Shown here in pieces: positions 23,595 to 31,023 of a DNA stretch of 64,000 bases (position 1 is the first letter of the stretch; each line of letters begins with the position of its first letter). The stretch spans positions 64,046-128,045 of the forward strand of contig DASXTV010000011.1 in the NCBI GenBank assembly GCA_036505175.1, in the 5' to 3' direction. Under the pieces are notes generated by a model. The model was not told where the DNA came from. It saw only the letters and a list, made by a program, of their open reading frames with translations, and searched no databases. The stretch comes from Gemmatimonadales bacterium (lineage in GTDB: Bacteria; Gemmatimonadota; Gemmatimonadetes; Gemmatimonadales; GWC2-71-9). A program made the translations under genes and the position numbers.

Positions 23595-24281
23595 ATGGCC
23601 GAGCGACGCTACAACGACAAAGAGATCGCCGCAATCTTTCGCGCAGCAACAGAAGTGCCCCAGAGTCCGCAGCGCGAGGTCTCGCGCGAGGAAGGGTTGA
23701 CGCTCGCCGACCTCCAGGCGATCGGCCGCGAGGTGGGCATTTCGTCCGACGCGGTCGCGCACGCTGCCCAGGCCCTCGATGTGCGACTCGACGCCGCATC
23801 GCGGACGTTTCTGGGGCTCCCGATCGGTGTGGGCCGGACGGTCAACCTCAATCGCGAGCTCAGTGATGCGGAGTGGGAGCGCCTGGTTGTGCAGCTGCGT
23901 GAGGTTTTCAACGCTCGCGGCACGACGCGCTCCGAAGGCTCGCTCAGGCAGTGGACGAATGGCAACCTGCAGGTCCTCCTCGAACCCACGGAGACCGGCC
24001 ATCGCCTCCGCTTTCGTACGATGCACGGCGCCGCTCGTGCGTCGATCGGCGCCGGCTTCGCGTTCCTCGGCGTCGCCGCGACGATCACGATTGTGAGTGC
24101 GATCGGTGGCACACTGGGTGACGCGCTTCCAGGAATCGCGTTCCTGTCCTTCACCGGTGTCGGGATGATTGCCGCCGGCGCACTACGGCTGCCGAGGTGG
24201 GCGCGCTTGCGCGGGCGTCAAATGGAAGCGCTCGCGGCTCGGGTCGCGCTTCCCCCGGATTCCCCTGCGCACAAGACATGA
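23595..24281 (+). CDS. hypothetical membrane protein (soluble N-domain, 2 C-terminal TM helices)
   Basis: 228-aa ORF with good GC3; TM segments GAGFAFLGVAATITIVSAIGG and IAFLSFTGVGMIAAGAL. No family recognised. Confidence 0.55.
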   Translation: MAERRYNDKEIAAIFRAATEVPQSPQREVSREEGLTLADLQAIGREVGISSDAVAHAAQALDVRLDAASRTFLGLPIGVGRTVNLNRELSDAEWERLVVQLREVFNARGTTRSEGSLRQWTNGNLQVLLEPTETGHRLRFRTMHGAARASIGAGFAFLGVAATITIVSAIGGTLGDALPGIAFLSFTGVGMIAAGALRLPRWARLRGRQMEALAARVALPPDSPAHKT

Positions 24282-24565: not shown

Positions 24566-24716
24566 CAGAGCGCCCGCGCGTCCGGCCCGCGAACTGGTGA
24601 CCCCCTTCACAGAGTTCCTGAGTCCTGTAGCGTAACGCTCTACGGCGCCTTGCCGACTCAGCCCACGGGTTCGATACTCGTGGGCTCCTCTTTGGGACTC
24701 GAACGCAGGAGTCGCC

Positions 24717-27700
24717 ATGGTTGCCGCTCGCAGGCTGACCCGCGCTGCCGTCGTCGTCTTGATCGTCGCCGGCAGCGCCGTCTGGTATGCTTGCGGCCGC
24801 AGGACAGATGGCCCGACCGGTCCCGCGTTCAATGCCCCCGATTTTCGCAGTGCCATGGCGATCCAGCGGCGCCACACGGAGGCGCTCCTCGACATTCCGG
24901 GCGTCGTGGGAACTGCGGTAACCCTGCTGCCCGACGGCCGCCCCGCCATGCAGATCCTGCTGGAACGCCCCGGCGTCGCGGGGCTGCCGGTGGTGCTCGA
25001 AGGCATTCCCGTCACGCAACGCGTGACCGGCCGGCTCATGGCGTTCAGCGATCCCACCCGGCGGCAGCGGCCGGCCCCCATGGGCTTTTCGGTCGGGCAT
25101 CCGGCGATCACGGCCGGGACCATCGGCGCGCGCGTGCGTGACGCCCTGGGACGCGTGTACATCCTCTCCAACAACCACGTGCTGGCCAACTCGAACGGCG
25201 CCAACATCGGCGATCCCGAGTACCAGCCCGGTCCGTTCGACGGCGGCACGAGCGCCGATCAGATCGCCACACTGACAGACTTTCAGGTGATCTCGTTCGC
25301 CGCCAACGGCAGCAACACCATCGACGCCGCGATCGCGCTGTCCAGCACGGCGGTGCTGGACAATGCAACGCCCGCGGACGACGGCTACAGCATGCCGAGC
25401 TCGACGATCTACGGGGACGCGAACGGCGACGGCCTGTTCGATGACACCAATGCGCTCCTCGGTCTCAACGTGCAGAAGTATGGCCGCACCACGCGCCTCA
25501 CGCACGGCCAGATCACCGGCGTCAACGCAACGGTGACTATTTGTTACGAGGTCTCAGGGTTCACCTGCACCAAGACCGCGCGCTACGTCGACCAGCTGAT
25601 CATCTCGCCAGGAACGTTCAGCGGCGGCGGGGACTCGGGCTCGCTCATCGTGACCGATGACGCGAACCTCAATCCGGTGGGTCTGCTGTTCGCGGGAAGC
25701 TCATCGGTGACCATCGCCAACCGCATCGATCTCGTCCTGCTCCGATTCGGCGTGACGATCGACGGGTCCGAGCCGCCGCCGCCCGGTCCGCTGACCGACC
25801 TGTCCCTCACGAGCGTCAGTGCACCGAGTACGGTGGTGCAGGGCAGTACCTCCAGCATCACCGTGAGCGTGAAGAACGTCGGCAATCAGGACGTCTCCAG
25901 CTTCGACGTCACGCTGCAGGACACCACCGAGCACGTGACGCTCGGCACGCAAACGGTCGGCGGACTGGTCGCCGGCGCCAGCACCACGCTGACCTTCGCC
26001 TGGACGCCGAGTACCACGGGCGAGCACGTGCTCGTGGCGCGGCAGCTGCGCTCGGACGACAGGGCTACGAACGACCAGCGCGCCGTAACGATACCCGTCA
26101 ACGCACCGGTGACCGACATCGCGGTGGCGAGCTTCAGCGGACCTACCGCGGTGACCGTAGGCCACGGCGCCAACATCGGCGTGACGGTCACCAACGTCGG
26201 CAACCAGAACGTGACGAGCGACATTGCCGTCACCCTGCAGGATTCGACGGCCGGCGTTACGCTCGGCACGCAGATGATCGCCGGGCTCGCGGCGGGTGCC
26301 AGCACGACGCTCGTCTTCAGCTGGAACACCACCGGCGCTGCCCTGGGCGGTCACACGCTCGTGGCAACGCACGCTCTGACCGACGACAACGCCGCCAACA
26401 ACCGGCGGACAACCGTGGTCACGGTGAATCCCAAGCCAACCGATATCGCTCTGACGGGAATCACCGCGCCGCGCTCGGTGGCCCAGGGAGAGACGGCACA
26501 CGTCGTGGTCACGGTTCAGAACGTGGGCGAGGTGGATGCCACGACGCCCTTCGCCGTCGACCTGCTTGACGGGTGGGCGGGCCCCACGGTCGGCACGGCA
26601 ACGGTGTCGGGTCTCCCGGTGGGGGCGACTGCCACGGTCGATATCGCGTGGAACACCGCCGGGGCGGAAATCACTGGGCACACCCTGTTCGCGACGCAGA
26701 GGCTGCCCGACGACGTCTCGACGAACAACACGATCGGGATCGCGGTGAACGTGACCGCGCCGCCACCACCGGGTCCGCCGCCCCCGCCGCCGCCGCCGCC
26801 ACCGCCCCCGCCGGGAACGGACGTCGCCGTCACGGGGATAACCGCGCCCGCACGCGTGACGCAAGGAGACACCGCACACGTCGTGGTCACGGTGCAGAAC
26901 GTGGGCGGGCAGGACGTCACGACGAACTTCGACGTCGTGTTGACCGACGGGTTTAACGGACCGACGCTCGGCACGCAGACGATCGCCGGGCTCGCCGTTG
27001 GCGTGAGCGTGACGCGGACATTCGACTGGAACACCGCCGGCGCGGCAGTCACCGGGCACACCCTGTTCGCCACGCAGAAGCTGGCCGACAGCAACTCGGG
27101 AAACAACAGCGCCGGCATCGGGGTCATCGTGCAAGCCCCGCCGGTAACGGACGTCGCCGTGAGCAGCGTCGTCGCGCCGAGCGCGGTGACGCAGGGGAGC
27201 ACCGCGTCCATCGGGGTGACGGTTCAAAACGTGGGCGGTGTAAATGTCAGCGGCAGCTTTGATGTCGTCCTGACCGACTCGACCGCGGGCGTGACACTCG
27301 GCACACAGACGGTGACGGGGCTTGCCGTTGGCGCCACCGCCACGCGCACCTTCAGCTGGAATACCACGAGCGCTGCACTGGGCGGCCACACGCTCGTGGC
27401 GTCTCACACCCTGTCCGACACCAACGCCGCGAACAACCAGCGCTCCGCGACCGTCACGGTGAACGCTCCGGTGACCGATGTCGCCGTGAGCGGCGTGAGC
27501 GCTCCGAGCTCGGTGATTCAGGGCAATCCTGTCATGATCGGTGTCACCGTGCAGAACGTGGGCGGGCAGAATGTCAGTAGCAGCTTCGATGTCGTGCTTA
27601 CCGACGCAACGGCCGGTGTGACGATCGGTACTCAGAGCGTCCCAGGGTTGGCGATCGGCGCGACCGCCACGCGCTCCTTCACCTGGAGCACCACCGGCGC

Positions 27701-28463
27701 CGCGCTAGGCGGTCATACGCTCGTGGCGACAGAGACTCTTACGGACGGCTACGCGGCCAACAACCAGCGCTCGGCGACGGTCACCGTGACGCCGCAGCCG
27801 ACCGATCTCGCTCTCGCGAGCATCACGGCGCCCGCCTCAGTGACACAAGGTGACACCGCCCTCATCTCGGCCACGGTGCAAAACGTGGGTGGCGCGGACG
27901 TGACCACCAGCTTCGATGTCGTGCTCACCGATGCGACGGCCGGCAACGCGGTGCTCGGGACGCAGACGATCTCCGGGCTCGCTGCGGGTGCCAGTGCGAC
28001 GCGCACCTTCAGCTGGAACACCGCCGGTGCAGCCATGAGCGGGCACATTCTGACGGCGACACAGAAGTTGGCGGACAACAACTCGAGCAACAACGCGGCC
28101 GCGATCGCGATCACCGTGAACGCGCCGAGTCTCCATGTGGGGAATTTGAACGGCGTTGCCACGAGCAACGGGAACACCTGGAGCGCGACCGTTCAGATCA
28201 CCGTGCACGACTGGCGGCACAATCTGGTGACCGGCGCCACCGTGCAGGGCACGTGGAACGGAAGCGGCCCCAATGGCCTGTGCTCGACGACCGCGGGCGG
28301 CAACGGGGTTTGCAGCATCGTCCTGTCGTCCATCCCGAATTCGACGAAGGCCGTCTCGTTCGCGGTGACCGGCATGACGTCGGCCGGCTACGTTTACAAG
28401 TCATCCGCCAATCACGACCCGGATGGCAGCAGCAACGGCTTCTCGATTACCGTCAAGCGATAG
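24717..28463 (+). CDS. secreted chymotrypsin-fold (S1) serine protease with N-terminal pro-region, 7 CARDB-like repeats, poly-Pro linker and a C-terminal beta domain
   Basis: Signal/lipobox-like MVAARRLTRAAVVVLIVAGSAVWYAC. Catalytic triad context: SNNHVL, IDAAIAL, GGGDSGS. Seven ~108-aa modules each with the pattern TD(V/I)A(V/L)...VTVQNVG...G(T)Q...L..G...T..F.W.T...G.H.L.A. Confidence 0.85.
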   Translation: MVAARRLTRAAVVVLIVAGSAVWYACGRRTDGPTGPAFNAPDFRSAMAIQRRHTEALLDIPGVVGTAVTLLPDGRPAMQILLERPGVAGLPVVLEGIPVTQRVTGRLMAFSDPTRRQRPAPMGFSVGHPAITAGTIGARVRDALGRVYILSNNHVLANSNGANIGDPEYQPGPFDGGTSADQIATLTDFQVISFAANGSNTIDAAIALSSTAVLDNATPADDGYSMPSSTIYGDANGDGLFDDTNALLGLNVQKYGRTTRLTHGQITGVNATVTICYEVSGFTCTKTARYVDQLIISPGTFSGGGDSGSLIVTDDANLNPVGLLFAGSSSVTIANRIDLVLLRFGVTIDGSEPPPPGPLTDLSLTSVSAPSTVVQGSTSSITVSVKNVGNQDVSSFDVTLQDTTEHVTLGTQTVGGLVAGASTTLTFAWTPSTTGEHVLVARQLRSDDRATNDQRAVTIPVNAPVTDIAVASFSGPTAVTVGHGANIGVTVTNVGNQNVTSDIAVTLQDSTAGVTLGTQMIAGLAAGASTTLVFSWNTTGAALGGHTLVATHALTDDNAANNRRTTVVTVNPKPTDIALTGITAPRSVAQGETAHVVVTVQNVGEVDATTPFAVDLLDGWAGPTVGTATVSGLPVGATATVDIAWNTAGAEITGHTLFATQRLPDDVSTNNTIGIAVNVTAPPPPGPPPPPPPPPPPPPGTDVAVTGITAPARVTQGDTAHVVVTVQNVGGQDVTTNFDVVLTDGFNGPTLGTQTIAGLAVGVSVTRTFDWNTAGAAVTGHTLFATQKLADSNSGNNSAGIGVIVQAPPVTDVAVSSVVAPSAVTQGSTASIGVTVQNVGGVNVSGSFDVVLTDSTAGVTLGTQTVTGLAVGATATRTFSWNTTSAALGGHTLVASHTLSDTNAANNQRSATVTVNAPVTDVAVSGVSAPSSVIQGNPVMIGVTVQNVGGQNVSSSFDVVLTDATAGVTIGTQSVPGLAIGATATRSFTWSTTGAALGGHTLVATETLTDGYAANNQRSATVTVTPQPTDLALASITAPASVTQGDTALISATVQNVGGADVTTSFDVVLTDATAGNAVLGTQTISGLAAGASATRTFSWNTAGAAMSGHILTATQKLADNNSSNNAAAIAITVNAPSLHVGNLNGVATSNGNTWSATVQITVHDWRHNLVTGATVQGTWNGSGPNGLCSTTAGGNGVCSIVLSSIPNSTKAVSFAVTGMTSAGYVYKSSANHDPDGSSNGFSITVKR
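25791..28127 (+). repeat. seven tandem ~324-bp coding modules (CARDB-like), interrupted by a Pro-coding tract at about 26758-26812
   Basis: Modules delimited from the translated protein (residues ~359-1137). Neighbouring modules share roughly 60-75 percent residues by eye. Confidence 0.85.
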
Positions 28464-28769
28464 ATGGTCGCACGCCTGATGACGCTGGTGCTGCTTGCGG
28501 GGGCATTGGCATGCTCCCGCTCGCAACCCGGAGGAGCTGGAGGAGCCACCGTAGCCGTGAAAAGCATCGACGAGGTTCTCGCCGCGCACACTGACTCGCT
28601 CATGGCGATCCCGGGCGTTGTGGGCACGGCGATCGGGTTGTGCGGTGGCGAGCGCTGTATCAAGGTTCTCGTAACCGACTCCAGCTCTCGAACCAAGGGC
28701 CGAATTCCCTCGCGTCTCGAAGGCTATCGTGTCGTGGTCGACGTGACTGGACCGATCCAGCCGAGATAA
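28464..28769 (+). CDS. small lipoprotein, paralog of the protease N-terminal pro-region
   Basis: ATG directly follows the protease stop (TAGATG). MVARLMTLVLLAGALAC signal. HTDSLMAIPGVVGTAIGL...IPSRLEGYRVVVDVTGPI aligns with protease HTEALLDIPGVVGTAVTL...LPVVLEGIPVTQRVTGRL. Confidence 0.65.
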   Translation: MVARLMTLVLLAGALACSRSQPGGAGGATVAVKSIDEVLAAHTDSLMAIPGVVGTAIGLCGGERCIKVLVTDSSSRTKGRIPSRLEGYRVVVDVTGPIQPR

Positions 28770-28771
28770 TC

Positions 28772-30907
28772 CTATGGTGTAGCCCTCGGCTCCACGCCGA
28801 CTTGCCGCCACAGATAGGCATAGGTCAGCGCGAGCTCCTTGGCGACCTGGGCGTTCGTGACCCCGGCACCGTGTCCACCTTCCGTGTTTTCGAAGTAGTA
28901 GAACGGCATCCCCATCGACTCCATCTTGGCGGCCATCTTGCGCGCGTGGCCCGGATGCACGCGGTCGTCGCGGGTCGTCGTCGTGAACATGACGGTGGGA
29001 TACTTCACCCCGGGCTTCAGGTTCTGGTAAGGTGAATACTGCGAGATGTAGGCCCAGTCCTCGGGTTTGTCGGGATCGCCATACTCGGCCATCCAGCTCG
29101 CCCCCGCGAGCAGATGGTTGTAGCGCTTCATGTCGAGCAGCGGATTCTGAATCAGCACCGCGTTATAGAGTTCGGGGTGTTGGGTGAGCGCGACGCCCAT
29201 CAACAGCCCGCCGTTCGAGCCGCCACGAATTCCCAGGTGCTGCGGGCTGGTGATGCTGTCGCGGATCAGCTCCTGCGACACCGCCGCGAAATCGTCGTAG
29301 ATGCGTTGCCGGTGCCCCTTCAGTCCGGCACGATGCCATTGCGGGCCGAACTCGCCACCGCCGCGAATATTGGCGAGCACGAAAACGCCCCCGCGCTCGA
29401 GCCACCCGGCGCCCGTGTGCGTGCTATACGACGGTGTGCTGGCAATCTCGAATCCGCCGTAGGCGCCGAGCAGGGTGGGATTGTTGCCGTCGCGCTTCAT
29501 GTCGCGGCGATGCACGACGAAGAAGGGGATCTTGGTGCCGTCCGCCGACGTCGCTTCCTGTTGGTCGACGACCAGGCCCGTCGCGTCGAACATCGCCGGG
29601 AGGCGCTTGAGTTCCGCGACGCTGCCATCGTCCGCCGTCACGTACAGCGTCGTTGGCTGAATGAAGTTCGTGAATGTGAAGAAGTACCGGTTCGACTGGG
29701 CGGACCTCGCAACGACGCCCACGGTGCCGAGATCTGGTGCCGGCACTCTGTCGAATGTCCATCGTCCATCCTGATAGCGGTAGCGCCGCAACTCGCCCCG
29801 TACGTTGTTCAGGACGTTGAGAAGCAGGTAGTCGCGCGTGGACGTCACGCCATTGATGGTCTCGCGTGGACCAGGCTGCATGACGAGCTGAAAGGCGCGC
29901 CTGCCGCTGAGAAAATCATCGAGGGGCAACGCGATCAGCGACGCAGTCGGCCAGGTCTTGCCACTCACAGTCCATGGATCGCGCACGTACACGACGAGCT
30001 GACCGTGCACGATACTGACATCGGCATCCGTGGGGACGTCGAGCTTCACGACCTTTCCGTGGTCATAGAGGTATCGCGTGCGGTGGTAAAAATCCGTCCC
30101 ATCCCTGATCATGAGATAACGGCGCACGCCGTCATTCGTGCTGGACGCAGACGCGCTGACGTGGTCGGGCGGCGCCTCGTACACGGTCGTCGCCGTAGAG
30201 AGCGGGGTACCACGCTTCCAGAGTTTGATGATGCGTGCGTAGCCGGAGGTTGTCATGCTGCCAGGTCCGAAATCGGTCCCGACGAGGAGCGTGTTGTCAT
30301 CGACCCACGTGATTCCGGACTTCGCTTCCGGAACCCTGAAACCATCAGCCACAAAGTGTCTGGTGGTGAGATCGAACTCCCGCAGCTCCGTGGCGTCCGA
30401 TCCGCCGCGCGACAGACCGACGATGCAGCGCCGGTATTCGGGCTCGAGGCAGCTCGCGCCCGCCCAGGACCAGGGCACGCCCTCCGCTTTGCTCAGCGAA
30501 TCCAGATCGATCACGGTCTCCCAGGAAGGATTCGCGGCGGCGTAGCTCGCCCATGTCGTCCGGCGCCAAATCCCCCGCTCGTGGTCGGCGTCTTGCCAGA
30601 AATTGTAAATCGAGTTCCCGAGGATATTGGGGAAGGCGATCTTGTCCTTGGAGTCGAGGATCTGCTTGATGCGAGCATAGAGCGTCTGATACAGGGGTGA
30701 TCCGCCGAGTTGGGCGATGGTAGCGGCGTTCTTGGCGTTCACCCACTCCATCGACCGTGCGCCCTCCACGTCCTCGAGCCAGACGAACGGGTCGTCGGCT
30801 GGAGGGGGAGGCGCAGGCGCCTGCTGTGCGCCTAGGACAGCGGTTCTTAGAAGGGTGAGGACGACGAGACCGAGTACGGCGGTGGTGGGGCGGTTCCTGC
30901 GATCCAT
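28772..30907 (-). CDS. prolyl oligopeptidase family (S9A) serine peptidase, secreted
   Basis: ATG 30907 preceded by GAGGAG (MDRRNRPTTAVLGLVVL). Beta-propeller region then GGSNGGLLMG nucleophile elbow, DDRVHP and GHG motifs. Confidence 0.9.
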   Translation of the reverse strand: MDRRNRPTTAVLGLVVLTLLRTAVLGAQQAPAPPPPADDPFVWLEDVEGARSMEWVNAKNAATIAQLGGSPLYQTLYARIKQILDSKDKIAFPNILGNSIYNFWQDADHERGIWRRTTWASYAAANPSWETVIDLDSLSKAEGVPWSWAGASCLEPEYRRCIVGLSRGGSDATELREFDLTTRHFVADGFRVPEAKSGITWVDDNTLLVGTDFGPGSMTTSGYARIIKLWKRGTPLSTATTVYEAPPDHVSASASSTNDGVRRYLMIRDGTDFYHRTRYLYDHGKVVKLDVPTDADVSIVHGQLVVYVRDPWTVSGKTWPTASLIALPLDDFLSGRRAFQLVMQPGPRETINGVTSTRDYLLLNVLNNVRGELRRYRYQDGRWTFDRVPAPDLGTVGVVARSAQSNRYFFTFTNFIQPTTLYVTADDGSVAELKRLPAMFDATGLVVDQQEATSADGTKIPFFVVHRRDMKRDGNNPTLLGAYGGFEIASTPSYSTHTGAGWLERGGVFVLANIRGGGEFGPQWHRAGLKGHRQRIYDDFAAVSQELIRDSITSPQHLGIRGGSNGGLLMGVALTQHPELYNAVLIQNPLLDMKRYNHLLAGASWMAEYGDPDKPEDWAYISQYSPYQNLKPGVKYPTVMFTTTTRDDRVHPGHARKMAAKMESMGMPFYYFENTEGGHGAGVTNAQVAKELALTYAYLWRQVGVEPRATP

Positions 30908-31023
30908 GGTAGCTCCTCGGAAATACGGTGGCGACGGCTCTGCTAAGGTACGAGTCAACCCGTTGGTCCACTAGGACTTTTGGACCTACCGTCAATCCCT
31001 CCAGCGATTAGCTTCCCCCCGGC

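Follow-up and report, generated by a model that had tools for sequence, protein, structure and literature searches.

We analyzed a 64,000-nucleotide (nt) stretch of a Gemmatimonadales genome (GenBank assembly GCA_036505175.1, contig DASXTV010000011.1, positions 64,046 to 128,045 of the forward strand; hereafter the window), in which the gene for a protease of 1248 amino acids (aa) is followed without a gap by the gene for a small predicted lipoprotein that is homologous to the N-terminal domain (N-domain) of the same protease. According to the table of open reading frames (ORFs) of the window, both ORFs have the coordinates assigned to them in an initial annotation, which had been made from the sequence alone. 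Reading of the junction (CGA TAG ATG GTC) likewise confirmed the TAGATG abutment described there, the ATG of the small ORF lying immediately after the protease stop and in the same frame. In close relatives, the protease gene and the small gene abut or overlap by 1 nt. The two genes are one translationally coupled module. Its features in the window are the following (residue numbers refer to the respective protein; HMM, hidden Markov model).

24717..28463, + strand: protease gene, ORF of 1248 aa; predicted lipoprotein with N-domain, S1 NAL1-like catalytic domain, seven CARDB repeats and C-terminal domain
24717..24794, + strand: protease signal peptide and lipobox (residues 1-26, ..AVWYAC26); Cys26 is invariant in 19 homologues
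24837..25037, + strand: protease N-domain (residues 41-107), matched at 112 bits by an HMM of protease N-domains; homologous to the small protein
25038..25766, + strand: linker AFSDPTRRQRPAPMGFSVGHP and S1-type catalytic domain (residues 108-350), matched at 468 bits by the catalytic-domain HMM
25176-25178, 25323-25325 and 25635-25637, + strand: catalytic residues His154, Asp203 and Ser307, respectively, in conserved motifs
25788..28127, + strand: seven CARDB repeats, which are immunoglobulin (Ig)-like (residues 358-1137; Pfam CARDB 2.6e-57 in 7 stretches; boundaries set by the P-x-T-D-[ILV]-A motif)
26757-26813, + strand: poly-proline spacer inside the CARDB array (residues 681-699)
28128..28460, + strand: C-terminal domain of ~110 aa (residues 1138-1248), common to the 590-aa paralogous proteases and conserved in P0203, P0223 and P0177
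28464..28769, + strand: small partner gene, ORF of 101 aa; predicted lipoprotein consisting of the N-domain paralogue only
28464..28514, + strand: small-protein signal peptide and lipobox (residues 1-17, LLAGALAC17); Cys17 and Ser18 are invariant in 37 homologues
28551..28766, + strand: folded alpha/beta domain (residues 30-101 of the small protein), matched at 148 bits by the small-type HMM; the protein ends ..TGPIQPR

Homology and conservation of the gene pair

The initial annotation had aligned the mature part of the small protein with residues ~53-106 of the protease. We found that this similarity is real and that it extends over residues ~40-110. With BLASTP, the small protein and protease residues 24-105 were 35% identical over 85 residues (E=2e-5), in an alignment that runs from the lipobox onward. 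A profile-profile comparison, which the initial annotation had proposed as a check, was significant as well: hhalign aligned the small-family profile to the protease-family profile with a probability of 98.1% (E=1.2e-13), residues 32-101 of the small protein corresponding to residues 40-110 of the protease. Moreover, the HMM of each domain type detects the other type in all loci examined.

For the analysis of the underlying duplication, 81 small-protein domains and 72 protease N-domains were aligned and a neighbour-joining tree was calculated. The nearest neighbour was of the same type for 153/153 domains, and one clade contained all 72 protease N-domains and zero small-protein domains. Mean identity within a type was 0.586 for the small-protein domains and 0.515 for the protease N-domains, the free-standing copies thus being no less conserved than those within the protease; cross-type identity was 0.368 within a locus compared to 0.358 between loci. 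The separate clades and the equal identities within and between loci therefore indicate one ancient duplication without gene conversion, followed by co-inheritance of the two copies. These comparisons show the small protein to be an ancient, separately exported and mostly lipid-anchored paralogue of the protease N-domain.

Both products carry signals for lipidation. In the N-terminus of the small protein (MVARLMTLVLLAGALAC|S), a short, basic n-region precedes a hydrophobic core and the lipobox Cys17, and the invariance of Cys17 and Ser18 supports the lipoprotein-type signal that had already been read on the 101-aa ORF. A PROSITE-type lipobox pattern is matched by 94 small-protein ORFs; many others carry L-A-G-C and are excluded by the pattern owing to a preceding Asn. 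The lipobox of the protease had been missed by the initial annotation. The pattern [LIVMFWSTAG](2)-[LIVMFYSTAGCQ]-[AGS]-C is present in 49 of 52 Gemmatimonadota-type proteases, and both products are thus predicted to be lipoproteins.

An AlphaFold2 model of the small protein reached a predicted local distance difference test (pLDDT) score of ~90 over residues 31-98 and has the topology alpha1(35-47)-beta1(52-60)-beta2(63-70)-alpha2(75-80)-beta3(88-94). Compared to the N-domain within the protease chain (cis domain), the small family is distinguished by two conserved cysteines (C65, invariant, and C60, nearly invariant at at least 90%), by a three-residue insertion that forms alpha2, and by an end soon after TG-x-[IF]-R-[PA]-[RL]. 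Neither domain type had a Pfam, NCBIfam or PDB sequence match when single sequences and profiles were searched; hits such as ribosomal S19/S7e and alphaRep were at chance level only. In a Foldseek search of the small-protein model against the PDB, the best E was 0.04, and the matches listed were generic alpha/beta sandwiches (the MamM C-terminal domain, EscJ and ribosomal proteins).

The small ORF is strongly conserved across relatives and is a genuine gene. Its ratio of nonsynonymous to synonymous substitutions (dN/dS) against relatives is 0.08-0.22, and the family comprises 1913 clusters at 50% identity with E<=1e-3, of which 612 have E<=1e-10. The small protein has 709 homologues of ~100 aa in a collection clustered at 90%. 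The best 150 clusters of the family are all short (49-255 aa), and some contain two or three tandem copies of the domain.

Conservation of the gene pair was assessed in a species scan, which covered one genome per GTDB species and whose loci were examined with our own HMMs. It yielded 80 loci in addition to the window (81 in total), mostly from Gemmatimonadota and also from bins labelled Planctomycetota, Longimicrobiales, Chloroflexi, Actinomycetota, Schekmanbacteria, Desulfuromonadales and 'archaeon'. In 75/81 loci, the gene directly 5' of the small gene and on the same strand encodes a protease with the catalytic domain, and 72 intact proteases also have the N-domain. The six exceptions comprise four loci with too little upstream DNA, one with a frameshifted protease and a 198-aa ORF in between (L088), and one with a subtilase instead (L082). 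A second scan of metagenome contigs, seeded with Planctomycetota-type small proteins, added 80 further loci, and the same arrangement was found in most of those with enough upstream DNA. The linkage, whose examination in related genomes the initial annotation had proposed, therefore holds. L081 was considered as a natural protease without N-domain and was set aside as uninformative, as it has no start codon and no signal peptide and its assembly contains indels.

The size of the partner protease ranges from ~340 aa (N-domain and catalytic domain only) to 1470 aa, and the pairing holds throughout. The core module is therefore a signal-N-domain-linker-S1 domain protein followed by a signal-N-domain' protein, and the CARDB array is a lineage-specific addition. 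The pair is kept in unrelated neighbourhoods, for example beside glycogen genes in L014. Homology and ancient tight linkage together make a dedicated functional partnership of the small protein and the protease, as put forward in the initial annotation, very likely.

Several variants of the small protein were observed. P0249, P0253, P0311 and P0326 are free-standing lipoproteins with two or three tandem N-domain copies. About nine small ORFs of ~75 aa (in L140, L143, L145, L146, L152, L155, L163, L165 and L171) are closely preceded by stops and encode no signal peptide at all, whereas the neighbouring proteases retain one; from their sequences, these ORFs possibly represent a cytoplasmic sub-family of the partner. 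In loci of the 590-aa proteases, the signal peptide of the small ORF is in frame without a preceding ATG, GTG or TTG (L044:5990-6090, L046:5950-6045, L065:5975-6075, L049:4440-4540 and L050:1440-1545). In L044, L046 and L065, an ATA codon shares bases with the protease stop (CC ATAG). No plausible start is found 5' of the hydrophobic core in L049 and L050; there, the protease stop is closely preceded by AGGAGA, at which a +1 shift would lead into the frame of the small ORF. In L046, the signal peptide and the domain lie in different frames. The start-less small ORFs may reflect reinitiation at a non-canonical codon or gene decay.

Catalytic domain and surroundings of the pair

The catalytic domain proper begins at about residue 123, after the conserved linker. 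Its His-Asp-Ser triad is formed by H154 in SNNHV, D203 in IDAAIA and S307 in GDSGS; H and S do not vary among 19 close and 23 diverse homologues, in which D is nearly invariant. Taken alone, the window protease remains under the Pfam thresholds (24.0 bits for Nal1_C compared to a cut-off of 26.1; Peptidase_S64 likewise sub-threshold), and no Pfam trypsin model was matched by this single sequence. A profile of the 23 diverse catalytic domains matched NAL1 crystal structures with E=6e-10, in an alignment that spans the His and Ser motifs. The same profile also matched bacterial S1E enzymes within a range of 5e-5 to 3e-3, with E values of 5e-5 for 1HPG (a Glu-specific protease), 7e-5 for SGPA and 3e-3 for alpha-lytic protease; SGPB was among these matches too. 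Among the 23 domains, Nal1_C was matched by 21, Peptidase_S64 by 16 and Trypsin_2 by 3. Based on the profile search against the PDB and on the Nal1_C matches, the earlier assignment to S1 holds at the profile level only and within a NAL1-like branch. The catalytic domain is the closest bacterial relative of NAL1. An AlphaFold2 model of protease residues 1-358, computed with a shallow alignment of 19 sequences, had a pLDDT of 39.

The CARDB repeats suggest that the protease is located at the cell surface. The C-terminal domain (residues 1138-1248) had no Pfam match. With regard to export, the Planctomycetota-type proteases (L096-L173) begin with MTRRIFCKVLL.., which is similar to the twin-arginine translocation (Tat) motif S/T-R-R-x-F-L-K, and Tat-like hints are seen elsewhere, namely SRRA(A/T)VL in several Gemmatimonadota homologues and ARRLTRA in the window protease (24717-24794). 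Against Tat, these proteases have very hydrophobic h-regions, unlike typical Tat signals. If the protease were exported folded via Tat, a guard against premature activity would be required.

Upstream of the pair, two further features were assigned.

24650..24678, + strand: promoter-like element 5' of the protease gene (-35 TTGCCG at 24650-24655; 17-nt spacer; -10 GATACT at 24673-24678)
24707..24711, + strand: Shine-Dalgarno-like AGGAG, 5 nt 5' of the protease ATG; GGAG is kept in orthologous upstream regions

The motif CTTGCCGAGTC..N..CATA(C/T)(A)T is position-conserved in 11 aligned upstream regions of orthologous loci, and the element at 24650..24678 is a putative promoter. It has 8/12 consensus matches, which is below the threshold of the consensus scan, and hence was not listed by it; this promoter and terminator scan as well as Rfam and tRNA scans of the region returned nothing relevant. 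A perfect 8-bp inverted repeat (AGCCCACG..11 nt..CGTGGGCT, window 24660-24686, + strand) overlaps the spacer and the -10 of the promoter-like element and is only partially conserved among relatives.

Because the TAG ATG junction in the window is in frame, recoding by stop read-through or frameshifting, which would fuse the protease to the small protein, was considered. It was rejected, since the relative frame of the two ORFs varies among loci (0, -1, +1). A read-through fusion is also disfavoured by the fact that the small protein retains its own signal peptide.

An M20-family peptidase gene lies 5' of the pair and on the same strand in 17 loci of several phyla (L068, L072, L080, L082, L086, L087, L089, L096, L099, L111, L115, L117, L121, L132, L145, L146 and L172), which suggests a recurrent peptide-degradation gene cluster. 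Beyond M20, the survey of neighbours in the collected loci revealed only lineage-specific genes and no conserved third gene of the module. In the window, a 728-aa ORF on the - strand (28772-30958), of the prolyl oligopeptidase (S9) type as judged by reading its translation, converges on the small ORF with 2 nt between the stops. Syntenic relatives have a glyoxalase gene or variable genes at this position, and the neighbourhood 3' of the pair is therefore a variable spot. Directly 5' of the protease gene, a 228-aa protein with a hydrophobic C-terminal half is encoded (23595-24281, + strand); its counterparts in the syntenic loci have no Pfam family assigned. All close Gemmatimonadales loci have it in synteny, with lengths of 225-232 aa, and it is not a recurrent neighbour in distant lineages.

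Possible roles of the small lipoprotein

Residues 53-106 of the protease had been labelled a pro-region in the initial annotation, which is an interpretation rather than an observation. The N-domain (41-107) does sit between the lipobox Cys26 and the catalytic domain (from ~123 on), and in the minimal proteases the linker between the two domains is long, variable and of low complexity. Both its position and the flexible linker would fit a pro-region. Homology to known propeptide families did not emerge: Pfam gave no match (see below), and a relation to the alpha-lytic protease pro-region, whose query sequence was verified to be identical to PDB 2PRO, was rejected at an hhalign probability of 0.15%.

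By analogy with known protease partners, we tentatively favour a role of the small protein as a dedicated inhibitor or latency factor, tethered to the membrane and similar to the N-domain of the protease itself, a role that seems quite possible though short of probable. The protease, whose ~65-residue alpha/beta N-domain is joined through the linker to the catalytic domain, is predicted to be exported and lipid-anchored via Cys26. The small protein would bind it in trans, on the surface used by the cis N-domain, and would keep the catalytic domain inactive or trap it at the membrane, and the envelope of the producer would thereby be protected until the protease arrives at its destination or is freed. 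Cleavage of the cis N-domain, if it occurs, would also release the protease from its own lipid anchor. Speculatively, inhibition may use the conserved C-terminal tail (..TG-x-[IF]-R-[PA]-[RL]), bound product-like in the substrate cleft. The end of the small protein (..TGPIQPR-COOH) aligns with the boundary between cis domain and linker (..TGRLMAF|SDPT), as would be expected if the tail fills the cleft in this manner.

Several lines of evidence argue for inhibition. Every intact protease retains the cis N-domain, so that folding has no obvious need of a second copy, which favours an inhibitor over a foldase. The known cases that combine a cis prodomain with a trans paralogue (SpeB-Spi, the SUB1 propeptide-like protein and I29) are inhibitors, and small lipoproteins co-transcribed with surface peptidases, the potempins, are proven inhibitors. 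In Planctomycetota-type loci, the signal peptide of the protease is without a lipobox while the small protein has a lipid anchor, which we also counted in favour. Furthermore, the roughly nine signal-less small ORFs resemble the cytoplasmic guards Spi and staphostatins, the tandem two- and three-domain variants resemble multi-headed inhibitors, and the last residue of the small protein is the one that aligns with the end of the cis domain.

Other results weigh against an inhibitor. No charge complementarity between the small domain and the catalytic domain was found in 107 pairs (median net charge 0 compared to -10), and the net charge of the cis N-domain is also 0. Searches of Pfam, PDB folds and hhalign revealed no similarity of the domain to known inhibitor or propeptide families; specifically, no Pfam propeptide family (Inhibitor_I9, PepSY, I29, Pro_Al_protease) was matched at E up to 10 by 36 diverse domains and 10 distant full proteins. 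The small partner is missing beside one paralogous 591-aa protease (L011-L013). In a marine-sediment lineage of the Planctomycetota type, moreover, the small gene directly follows an S8 subtilase (L082:2553-4668, L095:27-2142, L151:2968-5309 and L153:2968-5309; Pfam Peptidase_S8 5.5e-59 for the subtilase of L082). This position after an unrelated subtilase is a poor match to a strictly S1-specific fit. The association with subtilases may reflect a protease island, or a small protein that serves more than one protease class. A subtilase gene adjoins the pair of S1 protease and small protein in L133, L138 and L169, and the subtilases and some S1 proteases have a C-terminal Ig-like region in common (274 bits).

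Three other explanations have to be weighed against an inhibitor or latency factor. The small lipoprotein might be an in-trans foldase (steric chaperone) that acts at the membrane as a template or stabiliser while the exported catalytic domain folds. The homology and the strict gene linkage speak for a foldase as much as for an inhibitor, near-equimolar amounts of the two proteins are suggested by the translational coupling (TAGATG in the window, overlaps of 1 nt in relatives), and the membrane tether would hold the small protein at the site where the unfolded protease emerges. In addition, the S1E enzymes to which the catalytic domain is next most similar (SGPA and alpha-lytic protease) depend on pro-regions for folding. 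Nevertheless, we consider a foldase unlikely: the cis copy in all intact proteases would make it redundant, the N-domain is unrelated to the pro-region of alpha-lytic protease, the signal-less variants could not encounter a Sec-exported protease, and the tandem variants are difficult to account for. It also seems improbable that the N-domain is a permanent oligomerisation module, in which case an N-domain/N-domain heterodimer would anchor, orient or cap the protease and leave its active site untouched. Paralogous domains commonly heterodimerise, plant NAL1 entries of the PDB with 3 or 6 chains suggest an oligomer, and in the Planctomycetota-type loci the small protein, as the only lipidated product, could be the sole anchor of an otherwise soluble protease. 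The Gemmatimonadota protease, however, has its own lipid anchor, so that an extra one would be superfluous. Moreover, neither the small genes after S8 subtilases, which are without this N-domain, nor the signal-less small proteins fit an N-domain pairing at the membrane, and the long, variable, low-complexity linkers of the minimal proteases look cleavable or flexible.

Finally, the small protein could be unrelated in function to the protease, for instance a generic envelope lipoprotein or a decoy substrate, its adjacency being inherited synteny. The whole Gemmatimonadales neighbourhood is indeed syntenic (beta-lactamase, GH3, NamZ ... CDP-alcohol transferase, inositol-phosphate synthase), so adjacency in close relatives is weak evidence. 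Yet we regard such a coincidence as highly improbable, since the pair survives in wholly different neighbourhoods (L014, and in Planctomycetota, Chloroflexi, Schekmanbacteria and Desulfuromonadales) and no other neighbour family is conserved, save the M20 peptidase and lineage-specific genes.

It is possible, if doubtful, that the ~70-residue alpha/beta domain, which is widespread in Gemmatimonadota, Planctomycetota and other phyla, constitutes a new regulatory family of S1 proteases, acting both as a cis prodomain of NAL1-like envelope proteases and, in its usually lipid-anchored copy, as an obligatory second subunit in trans. The latter would be a membrane-tethered latency or immunity factor, or else a natural 'split pro-region' without which the cis copy would not suffice for folding. 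We know of no natural trans-acting prodomain paralogue for the chymotrypsin fold. A prodomain-like inhibitor or co-factor at this locus would be the first such paralogue that acts in trans on a protease of the chymotrypsin fold, and would found a new family of inhibitors or prodomains. It would assign a role to many small lipoproteins of soil and sediment bacteria that are now 'hypothetical', and would help to explain how nutrient-acquisition surface proteases are controlled in the abundant, little-studied Gemmatimonadota and Planctomycetota. The system consists of two genes, and minimal versions of ~350 aa plus 75-110 aa exist. Because the catalytic domain is the closest bacterial relative of NAL1, a crop-yield protease, regulatory principles from this system could also inform work on the NAL1 family.

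Comparison with known systems

A close, experimentally characterised precedent is SpeB-Spi of Streptococcus pyogenes (MEROPS I69), in which Spi, 'a propeptide analogue' juxtaposed to the protease gene, is a dedicated inhibitor (Kagawa et al. 2005 as cited in PMC2873492). As in SpeB-Spi, the small protein is encoded beside the protease and is homologous to its N-terminal region, and protection of the producer is proposed. In contrast, SpeB belongs to the C10 cysteine proteases and Spi resides in the cytoplasm, whereas the protease described here is a NAL1-like S1 enzyme, its partner is mostly a lipoprotein of an undescribed domain family, and both cleavage of the cis copy and inhibition are putative. 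Predicted lipoprotein pairs of protease and inhibitor are also represented by Bfp/Bfi of B. fragilis (PMC2873492), and for the Bacteroides C10 lipoprotein proteases the point has been made that cleavage frees the enzyme from its own lipid anchor (PMC2873492).

Stand-alone paralogues of the N-terminal region of a protease are further known from the subtilisin propeptide-like protein of the I9 type that inhibits Plasmodium SUB1 (PMC6993865) and from the I29 propeptide-like inhibitors CTLA-2alpha, crammer and BCPI (PMC4089206). The small protein shares this origin; inhibition of the mature enzyme in trans is a known feature of I9 and I29. Unlike here, these inhibitors serve the S8 and C1 families, occur in eukaryotes or fungi and are not operon partners. 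No subtilisin propeptide was found among the 50 best PDB fold matches of the small-protein model.

In size, lipidation and gene linkage to a peptidase, the small protein resembles the potempins of the KLIKK-peptidase system of Tannerella forsythia, outer-membrane lipoproteins of 98-132 residues that are co-transcribed with the peptidases, inhibit them specifically and protect the outer membrane (PMC9890683). Potempins differ in being beta-barrels, either oligonucleotide/oligosaccharide-binding (OB) or eight-stranded up-and-down, which are encoded upstream and are unrelated to the N-terminus of the peptidase, whereas the small protein is an alpha/beta domain, encoded downstream, and a paralogue of the N-domain. 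Its AlphaFold2 model contains no potempin-type beta-barrel, and the 50 PDB matches listed by Foldseek include no potempin.

Alpha-lytic protease and SGPB (S1E, Pro_Al_protease) likewise have an N-terminal alpha/beta domain between the signal peptide and the S1 domain, and the similarity of the catalytic domains is weak but real; the N-domain differs in having no homology to their pro-region. To our knowledge, no natural free-standing copy of a pro-region exists for S1E. The pro-regions of alpha-lytic protease and subtilisin assist folding in cis, and the membrane-anchored Lif does so for lipases. The lipase-specific foldases (Lif) and PrtM are membrane-anchored, private maturation factors encoded beside the secreted hydrolase that they serve. 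Unlike the small protein, they are unrelated in sequence to their client and act on lipases or S8 proteases, and Lif is all-helical. Among proteins with a solved structure or a curated model, NAL1 and the Pfam families Nal1_C and Peptidase_S64 (Ssy5) are most closely related to the catalytic domain; NAL1 is, however, a cytosolic plant enzyme without N-domain, CARDB repeats or a paired small protein.

We found no description in the literature of such a pairing for S1 proteases, nor of this domain. The statement of the initial annotation that the pairing is not a described system thus appears to hold for S1 proteases and for the domain, while the principle as such is established by SpeB-Spi, SUB1, I29 and the potempins. 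Known already are a stand-alone paralogue of the N-terminal region of a protease as its partner and small lipoprotein inhibitors encoded in an operon with a protease. New here are the NAL1-like protease of predicted chymotrypsin fold, the undescribed domain family (no Pfam model, at least 1900 clusters) and the occurrence of the pair in several little-studied phyla.

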